Source of the DNA: a virus
Strand: one strand, 5' to 3'
Length of the DNA: 24,808 nucleotides
Virus record (IMG/VR): IMGVR_UViG_3300018015_000429
A model generated the notes under the pieces. It was not told where the DNA came from. It worked only from the letters and a program-made list of their open reading frames with translations, and ran no database searches. Of this stretch, positions 7,291-21,778 are shown in pieces. Numbering within the stretch: position 1 is the stretch's first letter; the number at the start of each line of letters is the position of its first letter. A program made the translations under genes and the position numbers.

Positions 7291-8184
7291 ATGAGTTTTC
7301 AAAGAGACGCTTTAACATGGGTTGACACCGGGGCAGTAGCGTATCCCGCGTTGCACCAGCACATCATCGAATTGACCATGCCCGCACTTATCGTCAAGCG
7401 TTTGCTGCCTGAGTTTCCGTTGGTTGCAGGACGAACCGCGACGTTCGTAAAGGAAAAAGGAAGCAGAAGCATTGGCATCAGCGAGATCACCGAGGGCGCC
7501 GAGATTCCGATGGATTTCACGCCCCTTGACTATGTGAGTATCACGCCCTACAAGAAGGGCGAACGGATCCGTGTACCTCGCGAGCAGATTGAAGACCTCT
7601 ACATCCCAGTAATAGAACAGCAGCTCAGACGTCTGGCAAGACGTGTAGCCTACCAGATTGACAAGGACTGCCTCACATGTATTGACGCTGCGGCTGCCAA
7701 TTCAAGCGGCGGCACAGGGACCAGCATGGGAGCGACAGGAACAGAGTTCACAGTCTCGGGCGGCATCGGTACGAAGGATATTCTGTGGGCTGACGCGAAG
7801 ATTGCAAGTTACAACTTCCTCGCTGACAGCATCCTCTGCAATCCGATTAACGCTCGCGATCTAAAGTACCTCCCGCATTTCAGCCTAGCTATGCAGTACG
7901 GTGAACCAGTAATCCAGTCAGGAGCAATCGGCAAAGCGTACGGTTTAGACTTGTACGTGAGTACCGTTGTGTCTGCAGGCACAGCGTACGTGTTGAGCAC
8001 GGGTCAAAACCTAAGTGGTTCTTATGCTCCCCTCGGATTCTTCGTCATCAAGCGGCCTTTGCTGTCTGATTTGGACGTCAAGAAAGAGTTCGACGCAGTC
8101 GACGTTAGCTTGACGACGAGGTATGCGCCTGTTGTCACGGTCGGAGAAGCAATCGTCAAAATAACCGGCTTGAATACAACTTAG
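7291..8184 (+). CDS. Major capsid protein, HK97 fold
   Basis: 297 aa; EITEGAEIP, KKGERIRVPREQIED, RRLARRVAYQIDKD, ILCNP, GKAYGLDLYVS and TRYAPVV motifs; canonical position. Confidence 0.92.
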   Translation: MSFQRDALTWVDTGAVAYPALHQHIIELTMPALIVKRLLPEFPLVAGRTATFVKEKGSRSIGISEITEGAEIPMDFTPLDYVSITPYKKGERIRVPREQIEDLYIPVIEQQLRRLARRVAYQIDKDCLTCIDAAAANSSGGTGTSMGATGTEFTVSGGIGTKDILWADAKIASYNFLADSILCNPINARDLKYLPHFSLAMQYGEPVIQSGAIGKAYGLDLYVSTVVSAGTAYVLSTGQNLSGSYAPLGFFVIKRPLLSDLDVKKEFDAVDVSLTTRYAPVVTVGEAIVKITGLNTT

Positions 8185-8194
8185 AAAAGCCTGA

Positions 8195-8224
8195 TTTTCC
8201 CTTTCTTTTTTTCCCTGTTTCTTC
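8195..8224 (+). terminator. Archaeal-type oligo-T/pyrimidine terminator after the MCP gene
   Basis: ttttccctttcttttttttccctgttt-like pyrimidine run just after the TAG at 8184. Confidence 0.6.
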
Positions 8225-8269: not shown

Positions 8270-10603
8270 ATGAGTTCGGACAACAATAAGGGGTTAGCCC
8301 AGAGCATTCAGGTCAACGGTTTGACGTGGGCCAAGACGTTGATGATTTGTGCAATCCTAGTGTGTGCTGGGGTTGCCGCGTATTTTGGCGCCAATGTCTC
8401 CATGAGTGTCAGTCTTGCGGATAGGGTGCAAAACGTTGAAAATCGTATCGACATTCCCGTTAACAGTACCTTAAGCGCATTCCAGAAGAGCAACACGTTT
8501 CTTGTGATCCCACACGGTACCGGAGTATGCTTAATGAATGGTTCAGGATACTTCCAAGAATTCCTCGGAAATCAGACTCAAGTAATCATGGATGGGCTGA
8601 ATAATGCTTCAATCAGCGGTGGGAGCGTTTACGTTCAAGCGGGTAGTTACTCAGCTTCTGTCATCATTCAGAATAATACTCGATTCATCTTAGAGAAAGG
8701 CGCCACAGGAATAACGTACTCTGTAGCTCCTGGCGCTTACTGCATTATAGATGATTTCAACAGCGGCATATTCCAGTACTATGCTAACGGCAGCCTTTAC
8801 AGTCAATTCGATTATGCGCATAGCAACCTGCTTGTGCAGTCTGCTAATTTGACTTCTGTTTACGCTACAACCCTAGATCAGCTTAGCAGCGGTCAAGGCG
8901 TCAAAGTTCTGCACTTCATCGTCGAGAGCGGAACAAGCTTTCCATCTCCAATTGAGGAGCGAGTGTTCTTCAGAAGCGACCAAGGATACTTATATGTCTA
9001 CAACAGCGGATCTTGGACTGCAATCGGTGCCATCCCAAGCACGTATCCATACGCTAATCTCACAGGAGTTCCGCAAACTTTTCCGTACACTAACTTAACA
9101 AGCGTGCCTCAAACCTTTCCATACGCGAACTTAACGGGGCCACCCACACAGTATCCTTGGGCAAACTTGACGGGAATCCCTCTGCTCATTTATGCTAATG
9201 GTTCTCAGGGTCTCACAGCAGATTGGAATATTACGGGTTATGGCATTTTTGGCGCAACGTTATTGAACAGTACTCAGATTAATGCTAACTATTTCTGGTT
9301 GAACGGACAGAACCGCACTGATACGCTTGCCTATCCCATTGAACCTGTCGCTTACATCATTGACTATTCAGACGGAATCACGGCGCGAGTGAAAAACTGC
9401 ACAACTGGACAAGTAGACTACGCGAATTCCAATCAAACGCTAGCCGTTCAATACGCCTTTAATCATACAGACTGGACGGGTGCGCATGGAACACAAAAAG
9501 TGGTGCTGAGAGGTAACTTCAGCCTCAACTATTATCCAAACGTGCCCGCATATGCAGATATCGAGATTCAAGGCTATCTGAACGTAGTCAACAAAGCTGC
9601 TTTTATGCTCTGTTTCGATGATAGTCTGGCAATTCAATACAGCACTTACTTCAAGAACCTAACCTCGATATGGGGTTACAGAGGAAATGAGGCAGTTGTC
9701 GTTGATTGGCTTGCTCATGCAGGAACAACAAACACAACTTATACAACTCTTGCGAACCTGAAAGAAATGCGCGATGCAGGATGGAGTTTCTACAGTCACG
9801 GATGGTACAGTATTGACCTAAGCGCTGCTACTGTAACCCTTTCCCAGCAAGATCAAGAGATTCGGCAAAGCAAAGACTGGATTGAACGAAATCTTGGAGT
9901 ACGCGTCGATTCTATACAGTGGCCTAATGCTAAGCAAGGCGATATGGAAATGGCCAGGCAATACTACAATTACCTTGCTTACGGAAACTGGAAATCATGG
10001 CCAAACCAAACGTGGAACTATATCTCAGACTCCATGAGCGCATATTTTCCGACAGAAACAAACTTCAACGGCTCAAAACAAGACGGTGGAGTCATCGCGG
10101 CTGCTGCGTGGTATGCAGTTAACAGTACAGGCTCAGGATCAAACGGCGAGCTTGCAATTCTAACGTTCCACGGAACGATGACTAATTACTGGTTCAACCT
10201 GTGCATGGGAAACCTGAGCAGTTTCGGTCTTCCAGTTCTGACTTGGCGAGATGTTGACTACTACCTGAGCAAGCAACCGAAACCGACTATTGCAGGAGTA
10301 GATATTACTCTTAGAAATGAAGGAAATCAAACAGCTTGCGTTAACGGAACTTGGATAAAGCATAATCTCGGAGTAATTCCAAACGCAACATCAGTAACGC
10401 TAGGCAACTTCACATACATCAATAGTACTGCTTACTATATTGGCCCCTTCGTCATAGCATCCTCAATGAATTCAACATGGTTCCAAGTAGAATTTCTAAT
10501 CTGGAACGCTGGAACAATCACGCCCGTTGCAGTAACAGATCAACGAACGCTCATCTGGACTGCTTACTACGAGAAAATTATCATCTATCCAGCGCAAACA
10601 TAA
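8270..10603 (+). CDS. Membrane-anchored, sequon-rich multidomain protein: tailspike/fibre-like modules, NodB/CE4 polysaccharide-deacetylase-like domain and C-terminal beta-sandwich
   Basis: N-terminal TM (TLMICAILVCAGVAAYFGA); GGSVYVQAGSY beta-helix-entry motif; FPS...VFFRSDQGYLYVYNSGSW fibre motif; four (Y/F)P(Y/W)xNLT repeats; CFDD / SHGW / WPN / LTFHG CE4-like motifs; about 32 N-x-S/T sequons counted by hand. Confidence 0.8.
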   Translation: MSSDNNKGLAQSIQVNGLTWAKTLMICAILVCAGVAAYFGANVSMSVSLADRVQNVENRIDIPVNSTLSAFQKSNTFLVIPHGTGVCLMNGSGYFQEFLGNQTQVIMDGLNNASISGGSVYVQAGSYSASVIIQNNTRFILEKGATGITYSVAPGAYCIIDDFNSGIFQYYANGSLYSQFDYAHSNLLVQSANLTSVYATTLDQLSSGQGVKVLHFIVESGTSFPSPIEERVFFRSDQGYLYVYNSGSWTAIGAIPSTYPYANLTGVPQTFPYTNLTSVPQTFPYANLTGPPTQYPWANLTGIPLLIYANGSQGLTADWNITGYGIFGATLLNSTQINANYFWLNGQNRTDTLAYPIEPVAYIIDYSDGITARVKNCTTGQVDYANSNQTLAVQYAFNHTDWTGAHGTQKVVLRGNFSLNYYPNVPAYADIEIQGYLNVVNKAAFMLCFDDSLAIQYSTYFKNLTSIWGYRGNEAVVVDWLAHAGTTNTTYTTLANLKEMRDAGWSFYSHGWYSIDLSAATVTLSQQDQEIRQSKDWIERNLGVRVDSIQWPNAKQGDMEMARQYYNYLAYGNWKSWPNQTWNYISDSMSAYFPTETNFNGSKQDGGVIAAAAWYAVNSTGSGSNGELAILTFHGTMTNYWFNLCMGNLSSFGLPVLTWRDVDYYLSKQPKPTIAGVDITLRNEGNQTACVNGTWIKHNLGVIPNATSVTLGNFTYINSTAYYIGPFVIASSMNSTWFQVEFLIWNAGTITPVAVTDQRTLIWTAYYEKIIIYPAQT
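9044..9181 (+). repeat. Four 36-bp (12-aa) intragenic repeats
   Basis: YPYANLTGVPQT / FPYTNLTSVPQT / FPYANLTGPPTQ / YPWANLTGIP. Confidence 0.9.
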
Positions 10604-10624
10604 TCCCCCTTTTTTAGTCTCTTT
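10604..10624 (+). terminator. Oligo-T terminator after the 777-aa gene
   Basis: tccccctttttttagtctcttt-like run directly after the TAA. Confidence 0.55.
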
Positions 10625-10648
10625 AAAATTCATTCGAGATGTTGAAGA

Positions 10649-11362
10649 ATGGGTTCAGCAACTATCCTTGCAGGAAATACTTACGTTGATGTAGTGCACG
10701 GTCTCTCCTTTACGCCGACAATCGATGAGATCGTGCTAGTGCCTCAGGATGATCTAGGCGGTAGAGATTTCTGGCCTAGCAATCCAGGTCCCACAACTTT
10801 TCGCATAAACATTTCCATGGTAGACCCTGATACAAACCATACTTTCAGCTGGCAGCCTGTTCTACCAACTCTCCCAACACCACCACCTAGTGCTCCATCT
10901 CCTGACATCTTCATTAGCGCCAACGATATTCAAGCACAGCTCAACGCAGCATATGATTCTTCAAGTCTTATCTACACCGTTTTCGGCTTGCCGGTCTCCC
11001 AAGCAAGCTTCCAAGCGCACGTGAACTTCGCAAACACGTACATCCTCAACATTATAGGACCCGGAGGAGACCCTACTAGCAGTCGTTATCAGACAGCAGT
11101 ACTTACAGCAATGGACATTGCCTGTATAAGAATTCTAGTGGTCAGCCTTGGGGGAAGCCTTGTAGGAGCCTTCGACTACTTCATCGGAGATATGAGAGTT
11201 GCCAGAGCAGGACCGTACGCAACCGCAATAAAAGAGGCGCTTCAAGGCTTCCATGATGACTTGTTAAGGGTTCTCATGAACCTTTCGACGTCTGTTGTCA
11301 CGGTAGAAGCAAGTGCCAAGGATGATGTGCCAACGTATAAGGGAGGGCTCATGAATCCGTGA
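10649..11362 (+). CDS. Head-tail adaptor (gp6/gp15-like helical domain) with an N-terminal beta-sandwich and a Pro-rich linker
   Basis: C-terminal part FISANDIQAQL...FQAHVNFANTYI...AVLTAMDIACIRIL...DYFIGDMRV fits adaptor patterns; linker PVLPTLPTPPPSAPSP; position after the MCP. Confidence 0.65.
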   Translation: MGSATILAGNTYVDVVHGLSFTPTIDEIVLVPQDDLGGRDFWPSNPGPTTFRINISMVDPDTNHTFSWQPVLPTLPTPPPSAPSPDIFISANDIQAQLNAAYDSSSLIYTVFGLPVSQASFQAHVNFANTYILNIIGPGGDPTSSRYQTAVLTAMDIACIRILVVSLGGSLVGAFDYFIGDMRVARAGPYATAIKEALQGFHDDLLRVLMNLSTSVVTVEASAKDDVPTYKGGLMNP

Positions 11363-11490
11363 GTAAAGTCCTGGGAAAGGGTAACTATATCCTTGCCAAG
11401 GTCAATGGTACCAAAATGGTGCTGACAAGTACTGAGATGCAGCAGCTTATCAATAATGGCTATGATGTTGAAGTGGTCACGCCAACCTAA
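11359..11490 (+). CDS. 43-aa small protein MSKVLGKGNYILAKVNGTKMVLTSTEMQQLINNGYDVEVVTPT (below the ORF-track cutoff)
   Basis: GTG overlaps the adaptor TGA (GTGA); GGAGG RBS lies just upstream. Confidence 0.55.
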   Translation: MSKVLGKGNYILAKVNGTKMVLTSTEMQQLINNGYDVEVVTPT

Positions 11491-11502
11491 GGCCTATCAG
11501 GG

Positions 11503-11760
11503 CTACCATTTCTGTTCTGCCCAGCTTCTGTTATCAACGAGATAGAAGTCCTTGACCTTTCGATGCTCAAATACTGTCAGTCCAAAAAGCTTATCCAAAT
11601 CTACGATTCTAACTGGATAGTTTTCGCGCTCATGCACTAGCTCCTGAGTTAATCTACCTGAGACTACTGGGTTAATGAGTAACGCTATTGGTTGCCTTCC
11701 TGCTTCTCGGCATAATCTAATTGCTTCCTGAATTTGCGCGAGTATGATTGTCTTTGGCAT
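11503..11760 (-). CDS. Antisense 85-aa protein resembling an isolated HK97 capsid A-domain
   Basis: GAGGA RBS and TTTAAATAT TATA-like box (11802-11794) on the minus strand; QIQEAI...PIALLINP...RL...KLFGLTVF...FYLV pattern parallels the MCP. Confidence 0.6.
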   Translation of the reverse strand: MPKTIILAQIQEAIRLCREAGRQPIALLINPVVSGRLTQELVHERENYPVRIVDLDKLFGLTVFEHRKVKDFYLVDNRSWAEQKW

Positions 11761-11914
11761 TCCTCGTCATCCTGTACTTGTTTGGGAAAATCAATATTTA
11801 AACTTGAAGGAGCATGCCAAACTCAGGCCTGTGACTCTCAGAAGCTTTGACTTTTGATACTTTTTCCCTTCTCCGGTACAAACGTTTAGGCTTTTCTGAG
11901 GGCAGGAAATCTCT

Positions 11915-12031
11915 TTGAACGAGACTTTAAGGAAATTGAGTAAGTTAGTCTGTAAGAACTGTTCCAACTCTGATTATGACCTTTGCAGCAGTTGCGAGAT
12001 TCACAAGTTGATAAATGAACTCTTGAAGTGA
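11915..12031 (+). CDS. 38-aa zinc-finger microprotein MNETLRKLSKLVCKNCSNSDYDLCSSCEIHKLINELLK
   Basis: CxxC-x7-CxxC; TTG start; stop lies 4 nt before the next ATG (12036). Confidence 0.6.
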   Translation: MNETLRKLSKLVCKNCSNSDYDLCSSCEIHKLINELLK

Positions 12032-12035
12032 AAAG

Positions 12036-13658
12036 ATGGGCACTGTGCCTCAGAGCTATTACGATTTCATCGTGCATTACGCGCCGTACTTTTACGTGAT
12101 TCCAACCTTGCTGACGGCAGACGCGGCACTAGGACAGAAGAACGTAACGGTTGCGGATGGAACAAAGTTTCAAGCGGGATATCCTGTTCAAATCTATGAT
12201 AATATGCATAGCGAGTGGAACCTTGTTTCAAGCATTAACGGAAACATTGTCACTATGCAGAATAATCTTGTCTATGCCTATCAGATAGCTCAGAATGGAA
12301 CTGTAGAAGGCCCAGATCCTGGTTATGGTCAAGGCGTCTTCCCGGCTGCTTTTGCTATAGACTTTCTTTATCAAGCTTACTCGAGCAGCCAATTTACTAC
12401 GAAGCAGATAGATATCCTTACAAAGATCAGAGCCCTTGCAGACTTTATTCTCACGCAGCAATGCACAAATGCAGCTAAGAAAGCCTACGGCGGCTTCCAA
12501 AATGCTCAAGGAAGTACTGAATACTGGAGTGTCGACGCCGGCCGCTGCATACCTGCTCTTCTAGAAGCCTACAGCTTAACAGGTACAGCAACGTACCTTG
12601 CCGCAGCAGTCCTTGCGGGCTCTACTTTCCTATATAACATACAGCATAATCCCAGCCTTCTGGGCGTCCATGACAAGTATTATGGTGGCTTCGCAAGGTA
12701 TGTCGACATTAACGATGCCTGGAGCGAGCTGATGGACGTTGAAAACCTCTACTGCTTAATTGGACTTTCAATGCTAGCTCAAACTTACGATGGAGTACAC
12801 ACATCTATATACACCGCAATGATGACTGATCTAGTTAGCTCCCTGCGAAGCGGCTATGAGCAATTTTACTTGTGGTTTGACCCTAAGCCGACTGGAGACG
12901 GAAAATGGCATCGTGTAAGCCTTGGCGAAACACAAATCTATGACGATCCTTTCAGCTTCGCGCTCTTGGGTCTCTTCACGTATGAAGGATGGAGCACGAC
13001 CGCTGAGAATGTGTACAAGTTTCTTGGTAGTGTCCAGGCATCAGCTCAGTACCCAGCATATAATCCTGCTATCTGCTGGCCAGGATATATCGATGTTGTT
13101 CAACGGTTCCCAGCATGCGCCTATTACGATGCTCTAACGATCGGGATCCTTGGATCCATTCGTGCAGCGCATGATAAGCCTGCTTACTCTCTGAGCATGC
13201 AGGTTCTCGCTGAGTACTCAAATCAATTTCTTTTCTGGGGTCCTATATTCACGGATTACAGTCCGATAACTGCTCAAAAAGCAATGGCAAACGTAACGTG
13301 GCTAGCGCGCTTTTTCCTAAGCTATCAAGAGCCACAAACAGATATGACGAATATGCTGGCCACAAGTGGTGAAGATCTACAGCTTTACCCTGTGATAGAA
13401 GCTGCTGACACAATTACTTGGGGCAACGAGTTGGATTTGAAAGGTATGGTCACTCCGGGCGCGACAGGGGAAATCGTCATTGAGCCTGGCTACATCACGG
13501 AGAATAATATTACGGTTCACAGTTTCTTGCCTATTCGAGTGCATGATAAGATTCGCCAGGCAGGCGTGGACTATGAGGTTAAGACGGTTCAAGTTCACGA
13601 TTTCCAAGGAGATCCAGTGTTCTATAAAAGCGTCTGTAGGAAGCTGATCAATCAATGA
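12036..13658 (+). CDS. Head-closure/stopper (gp16-like C-terminal domain) fused to a large (alpha/alpha)-toroid glycosidase/cyclase-like domain
   Basis: Last ~95 aa (LKGMV...ITVHSFLPIRVHDKIRQAGVDYEVKTV...YKSVCRKL) match the stopper pattern; the N-terminal region has repeated helix plus YGGF/GKW turns typical of six-hairpin toroids; position between adaptor and terminator. Confidence 0.6.
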   Translation: MGTVPQSYYDFIVHYAPYFYVIPTLLTADAALGQKNVTVADGTKFQAGYPVQIYDNMHSEWNLVSSINGNIVTMQNNLVYAYQIAQNGTVEGPDPGYGQGVFPAAFAIDFLYQAYSSSQFTTKQIDILTKIRALADFILTQQCTNAAKKAYGGFQNAQGSTEYWSVDAGRCIPALLEAYSLTGTATYLAAAVLAGSTFLYNIQHNPSLLGVHDKYYGGFARYVDINDAWSELMDVENLYCLIGLSMLAQTYDGVHTSIYTAMMTDLVSSLRSGYEQFYLWFDPKPTGDGKWHRVSLGETQIYDDPFSFALLGLFTYEGWSTTAENVYKFLGSVQASAQYPAYNPAICWPGYIDVVQRFPACAYYDALTIGILGSIRAAHDKPAYSLSMQVLAEYSNQFLFWGPIFTDYSPITAQKAMANVTWLARFFLSYQEPQTDMTNMLATSGEDLQLYPVIEAADTITWGNELDLKGMVTPGATGEIVIEPGYITENNITVHSFLPIRVHDKIRQAGVDYEVKTVQVHDFQGDPVFYKSVCRKLINQ

Positions 13659-21352: not shown

Positions 21353-21778
21353 ATGAAGAGAATAATGTTCTTTGTAGTTGTCTTGGCTTTGGTGGTGTTT
21401 GCGGTTGCTGTTCCCGTTGTTTTTGCGCAGGATCAGCCTCCGGAACTGCCTAACGACTGGATTCATGGAATCTGGGTTGCAGCACAGGCCACGCCTATCG
21501 CCGTGATACTTTCCTTGCTAAACTGCATGGCAGGGTACTTGTCGAAGACGCCTGCTGAAAATTTCAAGTTTGAAAACTTCGTGTACACGGCGTTGATCAG
21601 CTTCACAGTCGGCGTTGGCACTTTGTATGCTGGATGGAGTTACGCTACGGTGCAGCTCTGGTTTGCCAACGGCTTTCTCACTTGGTATCTATGGAAGGTC
21701 GCTGAGATAATTGCAAAAAAGCTGCATTTCACAAAGCAGGTAACCTCTGCGCCTGGCCTAGGTCCCCCAAAAACCTAG
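21353..21778 (+). CDS. Membrane protein with a signal-peptide-like N-terminus and about 3 further hydrophobic segments; lysis or egress candidate
   Basis: GAGGAGGTG RBS; MKRIMFFVVVLALVVFAVAVPVVFA|QD signal-like region. Confidence 0.75.
   Translation: MKRIMFFVVVLALVVFAVAVPVVFAQDQPPELPNDWIHGIWVAAQATPIAVILSLLNCMAGYLSKTPAENFKFENFVYTALISFTVGVGTLYAGWSYATVQLWFANGFLTWYLWKVAEIIAKKLHFTKQVTSAPGLGPPKT

Follow-up and report, generated by a model that had tools for sequence, protein, structure and literature searches.

Phage tailspikes and depolymerase fibres, such as LKA1 gp49, AP22 gp53/gp54 and the R2 pyocin fibre, are composed of an N-terminal part, a stalk, an exchangeable head and a C-terminal sandwich. 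The same layout appears to be present in the product of a gene, here called X (777 residues, P0001), which is an open reading frame (ORF) at positions 8270-10603 of a 24,808-nucleotide stretch of viral DNA (IMG/VR record IMGVR_UViG_3300018015_000429; the whole stretch is referred to below as the window, and its features lie on the + strand unless stated otherwise). As in phage tailspikes, recombination breakpoints are located inside the gene. In contrast to them, X begins with an export signal or anchor instead of a soluble particle-binding domain and is loaded with N-x-S/T sequons, and its gene lies outside the tail-tip block, in the slot that separates the capsid gene from the adaptor gene. 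Judged from its sequence, X is best grouped with the tailspikes and depolymerases, from the known members of which it differs by its export signal and its predicted glycosylation load. We propose that X is a late protein belonging to the core set of a siphovirus group that infects Bathyarchaeia. The reading that we rank first, and hold tentatively, is that it is an exported, N-glycosylated, glycan-processing fibre that acts outside the membrane on the glycans of the surface layer (S-layer) or sheath late in infection, aiding egress or receptor destruction.

Comparison with described systems

The archaeal siphovirus protein gp31 of HFTV1 (PDB 8QPG) carries, like X, a CE4-type domain beside a sugar-binding-like domain (PMC12494034). 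It is a proven capsid-turret protein, the turret being thought to contact the S-layer, and it binds a catalytic zinc ion (PMC12494034), whereas X has lost the second metal-binding His. No hydrophobic helix is found in gp31 (Kyte-Doolittle (KD) maximum 0.88), and its sequons number 3 in the forward against 6 in the reverse direction. The structure 8QPG was not among the PDB profile matches of the CE4 domain of X. Homology of the juxtamembrane segment of X to the N-terminus of gp31 was considered and rejected (BLAST E 0.37, over a short stretch; profile E 17).

Signal-anchor-release (SAR) and Sec-exported endolysins, for which P1 Lyz, R21 of phage 21 and Lys44 of fOg44 are examples, combine, as X may do, an anti-envelope enzyme and a binding domain with a weakly hydrophobic, Gly/Ala/Ser-rich N-terminal export helix. 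Compared to SAR endolysins, however, X is 4-5 times larger, has a fibre stalk and appears targeted for glycosylation; the heads of its family (CE4, beta-helix, metallophosphatase) are not muralytic, and its neighbours are a capsid and an adaptor gene, with no holin-like gene.

A further likeness is found in the receptor-destroying glycoproteins, such as influenza neuraminidase (of type II, with an N-terminal anchor, a stalk and an enzymatic head) and the O-acetylesterases HEF of influenza C and HE of coronaviruses, which share with X the N-terminal anchor, the stalk, the glycan-modifying head of deacetylase or esterase logic and the heavy (in X putative) N-glycosylation. The benefit proposed for X is alike as well, as progeny would be kept from sticking to the producer cell. 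There is nevertheless no homology, and these glycoproteins are parts of an envelope, whereas the virus encoding X is tailed, with an HK97 capsid and no envelope, and the function of X is one that we infer. Finally, the prophage systems for surface modification and exclusion (P22 GtrABC, O-antigen acetyltransferases, T5 Llp) consist of virus-encoded envelope proteins that alter the receptor, or block it, on producer cells or lysogens, as is proposed for X. In contrast to X, these are small lipoproteins or polytopic membrane enzymes encoded by accessory genes, and none of them is known to be derived from a tailspike or to belong to the core of a structural operon. A search, not exhaustive, of the literature on viruses and proviruses of Bathyarchaeia, archaeal proviruses, and entry and egress returned no sequon-rich, tailspike-like protein bearing an export signal from a tailed archaeal virus.

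Export helix of X

An initial annotation of X, made from the sequence, had described it as a membrane-anchored protein with an N-terminal transmembrane helix, and a hydrophobic helix is indeed present. Residues 1-21 (8270-8332) form a short tail, predicted to lie on the cytoplasmic side, in which a Lys adjoins the helix and in which the motif [ILV]-[NS]-L-x-x-[LIF]...K-W-W-Q-A-T is retained among relatives. The tail is followed by the hydrophobic helix itself, rich in Gly, Ala, Ser and Thr, at residues 22-42 (8333-8395). In a KD scan the single hydrophobic segment of X spanned residues about 19-42 (19-residue maximum of 2.15 at residue 23), no further one being found beyond it, and residues 19-38 are helical in the AlphaFold2 model. 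The Lys and Trp residues on the N-side of the helix suggest an N-in, C-out orientation. Two identities are compatible with such a helix, a signal anchor and the core of a signal peptide that is cleaved off. Export of X is well supported and permanent anchoring is not, the topology given here being a predicted one.

The helices of the X family contain 41% Gly/Ala/Ser/Thr, compared to 28% in 23 N-terminal anchors of host proteins (Mann-Whitney p 1e-6, the family members not being independent of each other), their mean KD value is 1.89 compared to 2.25 in the host anchors, and small residues come after them. By analogy, this composition resembles that of a releasable SAR-type anchor or of a long signal peptide. 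A class III (type IV pilin-like) signal peptide, the cleavage motif of which ([KRDE]-[GA]) directly precedes the hydrophobic stretch, was considered and rejected: the start of the helix reads ..W-A-K-T-L-M-I.. in X and ..K-W-W-Q-A-T-I-M-I.. in relatives, and no [KRDE][GA] pair is present at the helix start.

Sequon load and host calibration

Approximately 32 sequons had been counted by hand in X, a density described as far above that of the other structural proteins of the window. The exact number is 32 (N-x-S/T, x not Pro) in 777 residues, or 4.1 per 100 residues. Composition does not account for this load: composition-preserving shuffles of X contained 10.9 ± 3.0 sequons (z 7.1; 0 of 500 shuffles reached 32), and the control motifs [ST]-x-N, N-[ST] and N-x-x-[ST] were found 6, 11 and 12 times, respectively, giving a forward:reverse ratio of 32:6. 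Sequons comprise 49% of the Asn residues of X, with an NxT:NxS ratio of 24:8, and they are present in every domain after the helix, including the CE4 domain and the lectin-like tip. The other + strand ORFs of the window contain 0-2.4 sequons per 100 residues, and in those longer than 100 residues the density does not exceed 1.3; two short ORFs alone, containing 2 and 3 sequons, nominally exceed their own shuffles, and the hub of 968 residues has 5 sequons where 6.7 are expected. At five positions (N65, N90, N101, N112 and N193) the sequon is shared by 10 or more of 13 homologues, which are 30-43% identical overall, and in the X family the mean density is 2.6 per 100 residues, with 2875 forward versus 1693 reverse motifs.

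The host lineage of the X-bearing viruses is, on the evidence of genomic matches, Bathyarchaeia. A scan of species-representative genomes with a 13-sequence alignment identified relatives in two metagenome-assembled genomes (MAGs) of Bathyarchaeia, in one of them on a 1.44-Mb contig; relatives being integrated in Bathyarchaeia chromosomes, the virus group is temperate. In both host MAGs the proviral copy of X is the sole copy. Among 401 Bathyarchaeia genomes, any match to X was found in 7 and the N-terminal module in only 2, which is how a mobile element, and not a family of cellular surface proteins, is distributed. Both an S-layer and a sheath are present in cultured Bathyarchaeum.

Sequon density was calibrated on 400 kb (L012-L031) of the Bathyarchaeia genome G001, the host of a related provirus. 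Proteins without a hydrophobic segment contain 0.34 sequons per 100 residues in this sample (maximum 1.7; forward:reverse ratio 0.87), compared to 1.85 in proteins with a single N-terminal hydrophobic segment, and all nine proteins reaching at least 3.5 sequons per 100 residues have an N-terminal hydrophobic segment. The density hence separates exported from cytoplasmic proteins in G001, and X, at 4.1, falls at the top of the exported class. Genes for AglB/STT3 (PF02516 above cut-off) were found in G001, G002 and G074, all of them hosts of related proviruses. Taken with this calibration, the sequon excess points to export of X, which is predicted to be N-glycosylated. Separately, G001 proteins with several hydrophobic segments were observed to contain 1.2 sequons per 100 residues, at a forward:reverse ratio of 1.75.

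Domain architecture of X

Following the helix, residues 43-75 (8396-8494) are conserved more strongly than any other part of the family (..ARV.AIENRLDIPVNS[ST]LSAF.K), with invariant alignment columns and the invariant sequon N65. Residues 76-190 (8495-8839) comprise a conserved beta module A (GGSVYV), which is similar to a beta-helix cap or entry, bears the sequons N90, N101 and N112 and was modelled with a predicted local distance difference test score (pLDDT) of 87-98; its VIA Z score is 5.4 to the Fri1 tailspike and to a putative glycosyl hydrolase. A small beta module at residues 200-255 (8867-9034), with the fibre motif ENGTSFP...FFRSD.G.LYVYN..W, occurs 2-3 times in some homologues. It is followed by four 12-residue repeats, YPYANLTGxPQT, at residues 259-306 (9044-9187), with one sequon each (N263, N275, N287, N299), and by a second module resembling a beta-helix cap at residues 340-440 (9287-9589; pLDDT 76-94), which in the alignment of homologues comes before a right-handed beta-helix.

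In X, residues 442-670 (9593-10279) were assigned to a CE4 (NodB-type) polysaccharide deacetylase domain (Pfam PF01522; 28.3 bits at a cut-off of 23.1). This region matches the Streptococcus deacetylase of PDB 6dq3 (E 1.7e-5 as a single sequence, 5.9e-16 as a profile), and its profile also matches 6go1, PgaB/BpsB and ArCE4A. The CE4 consensus comprises motif 1 (T-F-D-D), with the base and a metal-binding Asp, motif 2 (H-[ST]-x-x-H) and motif 5 (L-x-H), with the acid. Motif 1 reads C-F-D-D in X (residues 448-451), F-D-D being invariant in 11 sequences, and motif 5 reads L-T-F-H and is nearly invariant in the alignment. Motif 2 reads H-G-W-Y-S: its first His does not vary, and all members of the virus clade have Ser in place of the second metal-binding His; two remote relatives (P0066 and P0113) retain H-T-x-T-H. 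Because of this Ser, the CE4 head of X may be an atypical enzyme or a mere binding module.

The C-terminus (residues 680-770, 10307-10579; pLDDT 77-93) is a lectin-like beta-sandwich with 5 sequons. Its VIA Z scores are 6.5 to LKA1 gp49, 6.4 to the R2 pyocin fibre, 6.2 to AP22 gp53 and 6.0 to discoidin I, and it also aligns with the C-terminal domain of the phi297 tailspike and with H-type lectins at Z within 6.0-6.5. These VIA matches of X (Z 5.4-6.5) are middling, consistent in kind and below the tool's clear level of Z 8. The whole-protein model has a pLDDT of 64.5 and is confident at residues 70-190, 220-255, 360-440 and 680-770; a whole-protein Foldseek search against the PDB gave nothing below E 0.2. 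The tailspike-like modular build that the initial annotation had claimed is in agreement with the similarity of the sandwich to tailspike and fibre C-termini (Z 6.0-6.5) and with the beta-helix heads of homologues, and the motifs named in it were all located in X (GGSVYVQAGSY at residues 117-127, FP..VFFRSD.G.LYVY..GSW at 222-248 and HNLGVIP at 698-704). The modules of X were not found in any other protein of the window, including the 968-residue hub. An H-G-L..P domain shared between the C-terminal sandwich and the N-terminal domain of the adaptor was considered and rejected (hhalign probability 0.3; no BLAST match).

Relatives and mosaicism

Homologues of X numbered 38 in a word-based search and 324 cluster representatives in an exhaustive one. 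The N-terminal hydrophobic helix is present in 135 of 165 fetched representatives, most of the remainder looking like fragments, so the homologues do not appear as ordinary virion proteins lacking the helix. Common to the family are the N-terminal ~190-400 residues, with modules shuffled. Among 26 aligned members, the head is a right-handed beta-helix in 15 (PF13229/PF05048), a CE4 domain in two and a metallophosphatase in one; none of the identified heads is a protease or lysozyme, and all of them belong to classes acting on glycans or phosphoesters. No match to X was found by tblastn in 50,697 deposited phage genomes, archaeal viruses included, and PHROGs contained no family matching it. In one relative (L003) two X-like genes were observed in tandem (8321-9991 and 9998-12004), each with an N-terminal helix, with 12 and 22 sequons.

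Compared to the closest relative (L001), the head proteins are 97-100% identical, X 75% and the products of the downstream genes 51-81%. At the DNA level, identity is ~95% up to about nt 8390, just past the helix, drops to ~60% in the stalk region and recovers to 82-90% in that of the CE4 head. Across eight loci, the identity of the first 45 residues of X follows that of the capsid gene, whereas residues 46-190 stay at 43-70% regardless. This mosaicism is the recombination pattern of receptor-binding proteins.

Position of X between capsid and adaptor genes

Directly upstream of X lies a major capsid protein gene of the HK97 type (7291-8184; PF25209 E 6e-9; PHROG major head protein E 1e-13), and directly after it a head-tail adaptor-like gene (10649-11362). 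Four related loci were found in IMG/VR with the X protein and 13 more by alignment, and related viral or proviral loci number about 20 overall. Every related locus with visible flanks presents the same order, namely capsid gene, 0-2 small ORFs, X and adaptor-like gene, including loci with a terminase of 24-40% and a portal of 23-25% identity to their counterparts in the window. The initial suggestion that X had been inserted in the head module is therefore not borne out: fixed in the capsid-adaptor slot, X is a core component, neither an insertion nor a moron. Among the long ORFs of these modules only X is enriched in sequons; a few short ORFs elsewhere in these loci match an X-like density on 4-7 sequons. 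In a distant provirus (L011; G074:C3, 1-4483, - strand), an X homologue of 864 residues ends the structural module, ~10 kb downstream of the capsid gene, and next to it comes another anchored ORF, which contains 21 sequons and is cut off by the start of the contig.

A proposed role of X from the cell side

According to the reading ranked first, the N-terminal helix would direct X into Sec export in an N-in topology that places most of the protein outside, and the oligosaccharyltransferase AglB of the host would glycosylate it heavily. On the far side of the cytoplasmic membrane, whether still tethered or set free beneath the S-layer, X would be displayed as a fibre-like stalk bearing a glycan-processing head (CE4-type here, beta-helix or metallophosphatase in relatives) and a lectin-like tip. 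With these it could, late in infection, bind and modify the glycans of the host surface, be they S-layer N-glycans or those of the outer sheath. Loosening or stripping of the glycan coat may allow progeny to escape, and removal of receptors may prevent progeny from being lost to debris or to already infected cells. X would in this way be the cell-side counterpart of a tailspike, akin to a receptor-destroying enzyme. The glycosylation, the reach of the stalk to the outer layers, the enzymatic activity, the late timing and the benefit to the virus are parts of this proposal that we infer.

This reading is favoured because X combines an export signal with a conserved sequon excess, the meaning of which is given by the host calibration and by AglB in related hosts, and because the heads of its family are purely those of glycan- or phosphoester-active proteins, next to a lectin-like C-terminus. 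It is also favoured by the sporadic occurrence of X in cells and by the tight linkage with the adaptor gene that 8 of 14 relatives show. Moreover, the separate hub/fibre of 968 residues, which has no sequon excess, can serve as the receptor binder of the virion, and the virion-borne CE4 protein HFTV1 gp31 has neither a hydrophobic helix nor a sequon excess. The reading requires no new assembly route.

Several points weigh against it. A non-virion gene kept in the capsid-adaptor slot across viruses with terminases of 24-40% identity would be unusual, as this slot normally holds head or neck parts, and a conserved N-terminal part with a stalk and a swappable head is the architecture of virion receptor-binding proteins. 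Several relatives have no other tailspike-like protein, their tail-tip genes encoding at most about 345 residues. A deacetylase cannot cut a polymer, and with the second metal-binding His lost the head may only bind; furthermore, the models of the CE4 domain, which in this family is a (beta/alpha)7 barrel, are of low confidence (pLDDT <50 in the whole-protein model and 48 for the CE4 domain with the C-terminus, from 11 sequences). The evidence pulls in opposite directions, the export helix and sequons suggesting a place outside the membrane and the genome position and architecture a virion fibre.

The main alternative is that X is a virion fibre, an appendage of head, neck or tail, which is exported, glycosylated and freed by signal-peptide cleavage or release of a weak anchor, and which docks on finished particles only at lysis, when the membrane breaks, through its conserved mature residues 43-190; the naked tailed particle would thereby bear a host-glycosylated recognition fibre. 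Its fixed position between capsid and adaptor genes in about 20 loci, the layout of a receptor-binding protein with breakpoints inside the gene and its being the sole tailspike-like protein in several relatives all fit a virion fibre, as does a Gly/Ala/Ser/Thr-rich helix (41% against 28%) followed by small residues, which would suit a cleavable or releasable signal. On the other hand, the assembly of tailed viruses is cytoplasmic, and incorporation of exported proteins into the particle is not known from any of them; no covariation was seen between the N-terminal parts of X and the extra domain of the adaptor, and the window already encodes the 968-residue hub/fibre. The capsid turrets of HFTV1, which carry a CE4-like deacetylase thought to bind the S-layer (PMC12494034), speak for a place on the particle, but gp31 has no export signal, sequon excess or sequence similarity to X. 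A virion fibre of this kind is possible, if somewhat doubtful. The broader idea that some archaeal tailed viruses make their host-recognition fibres via the secretory and N-glycosylation pathway, X joining the particle at or after lysis, would appear rather unlikely; to our knowledge, no member of Caudoviricetes uses such a route of fibre assembly.

Lysogenic conversion, as put forward in the initial annotation, would have X made from the resident provirus, masking, decoying or remodelling receptors (superinfection exclusion) or acting as an adhesin of the lysogen. The export and glycosylation signals, the integration of relatives in Bathyarchaeia chromosomes, which marks the group as temperate, and the glycan-modifying heads, which recall the O-antigen-modifying enzymes of prophages, are all compatible with such a role. 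The same applies to the oligo-T bracket that had been noted around X, which was located as a T7 run at 8206-8212, 22 nt past the capsid stop and likely to be an archaeal intrinsic terminator or attenuator, and a terminator-like C5-T6 run, its T6 at 10610-10615, 7 nt past the X stop; the next gene moreover has a TATA-like box of its own (TTTAAAA, 10622-10628, centred 24 nt before the adaptor ATG), a putative promoter element. Besides T7 at 8206 and T6 at 10610, the only intergenic run of at least five T in the structural operon is a T5 at 11861. T-rich runs like T7 also follow the capsid gene in L001 and L032, and CCCC-T(5-6) recurs after X in L001, L040, L005 and L044. The bracket is not conserved, however: CCCC-T(5-6) is absent from 8 other relatives, and a spacer of only 12-30 nt, purine-rich, Shine-Dalgarno-like and without a terminator, separates X from the adaptor gene in 8 of the 14 relatives. 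The 64 nt preceding X contain no convincing TATA box or B recognition element. The tight coupling makes late expression together with the virion genes more plausible than expression specific to the lysogen, and X occurs universally and at a constant place, in contrast to the sporadic morons. Lysogenic conversion is accordingly regarded as improbable.

Still less probable, to the point of being very unlikely, is that X is an ordinary, cytoplasmically assembled fibre, in which the helix is a trimerisation or particle-insertion element and the sequons are a by-product of Asn/Thr-rich repeats. The tailspike-like folds, the structural-operon position and the origin of four sequons in one 12-residue repeat would be accommodated by it, but not the forward:reverse ratio of 32:6 with an excess in every domain, the missing excess in the window's hub/fibre and in HFTV1 virion proteins, the confinement of such densities in G001 to proteins with an N-terminal hydrophobic segment, or a Lys/Trp interface typical of membrane insertion on a helix kept in 135 of 165 relatives. 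Finally, we give hardly any credence to X as an auxiliary metabolic gene, that is, a surface-anchored, polysaccharide-active enzyme helping a peat-dwelling host to feed on plant polymers, since the carbohydrate-active heads and the naming of one host MAG after SPRUCE (presumably the SPRUCE peatland site) are set against the rarity of cellular homologues (7 of 401 genomes) and against a stalk, a lectin tip, fast head swapping and a fixed structural slot, which fit interaction with the host surface better.

The egress of tailed archaeal viruses is uncharacterised (PMC10791045) and, like their handling of the S-layer and outer sheaths, an open question, for which X represents a concrete candidate: a conserved, position-fixed and fast-evolving protein with the anatomy of a tailspike and the address label of a cell-surface glycoprotein. 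If the cell-side role ranked first is true, a tailed virus would place a receptor-destroying or coat-opening enzyme outside its producer cell, and if X is instead a virion fibre, a tailed virus would have fibres that are exported and glycosylated before joining the particle; either would be new for Caudoviricetes. The conserved segment at residues 43-190 may be used as a sequence marker for Bathyarchaeia viruses in peat and sediment metagenomes, and the swappable heads as a readout of the surface glycans that matter in this uncultured and globally abundant lineage.

Further features of the window and related loci

In several relatives, an extra gene of 196-237 residues with an N-terminal hydrophobic segment was observed between the capsid gene and X (L005 9049-9762; L037 7308-7898; L044 2643-3344; L036 9220-9861; L043 8990-9583). 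It is absent from the window and from L001, and no Pfam or PHROGs match was obtained for it. In the adaptor-like protein, the first 70 residues are 61-87% identical across relatives, exceeding the conservation of the capsid in the distant ones, and the C-terminal part exists in two unrelated versions, one of which resembles the HK97 gp6/SPP1 gp15 connector. Downstream of the adaptor-like gene, positions 11363-12035 comprise 673 nt of the structural operon without a + strand ORF of at least 60 residues, and only short minus-strand ORFs were found there (11503-11760 and 11886-12077).

An ORF of 141 residues at 21353-21778 (+ strand) has an N-terminal segment with a KD value of 3.18 and more hydrophobic stretches, and it is a candidate for a holin-like or second surface protein. 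Small membrane proteins are found at the equivalent place in L003, L004 and L006, between the homologue of w20671 and the ABC-GNAT gene, two of those in L006 being rich in sequons. Finally, the tail tube gene (PF18906, 14653-15528) is located upstream of an HK97 gp10-like gene (PF04883, 16260-16631), which is an unusual neck/tail order for a siphovirus.

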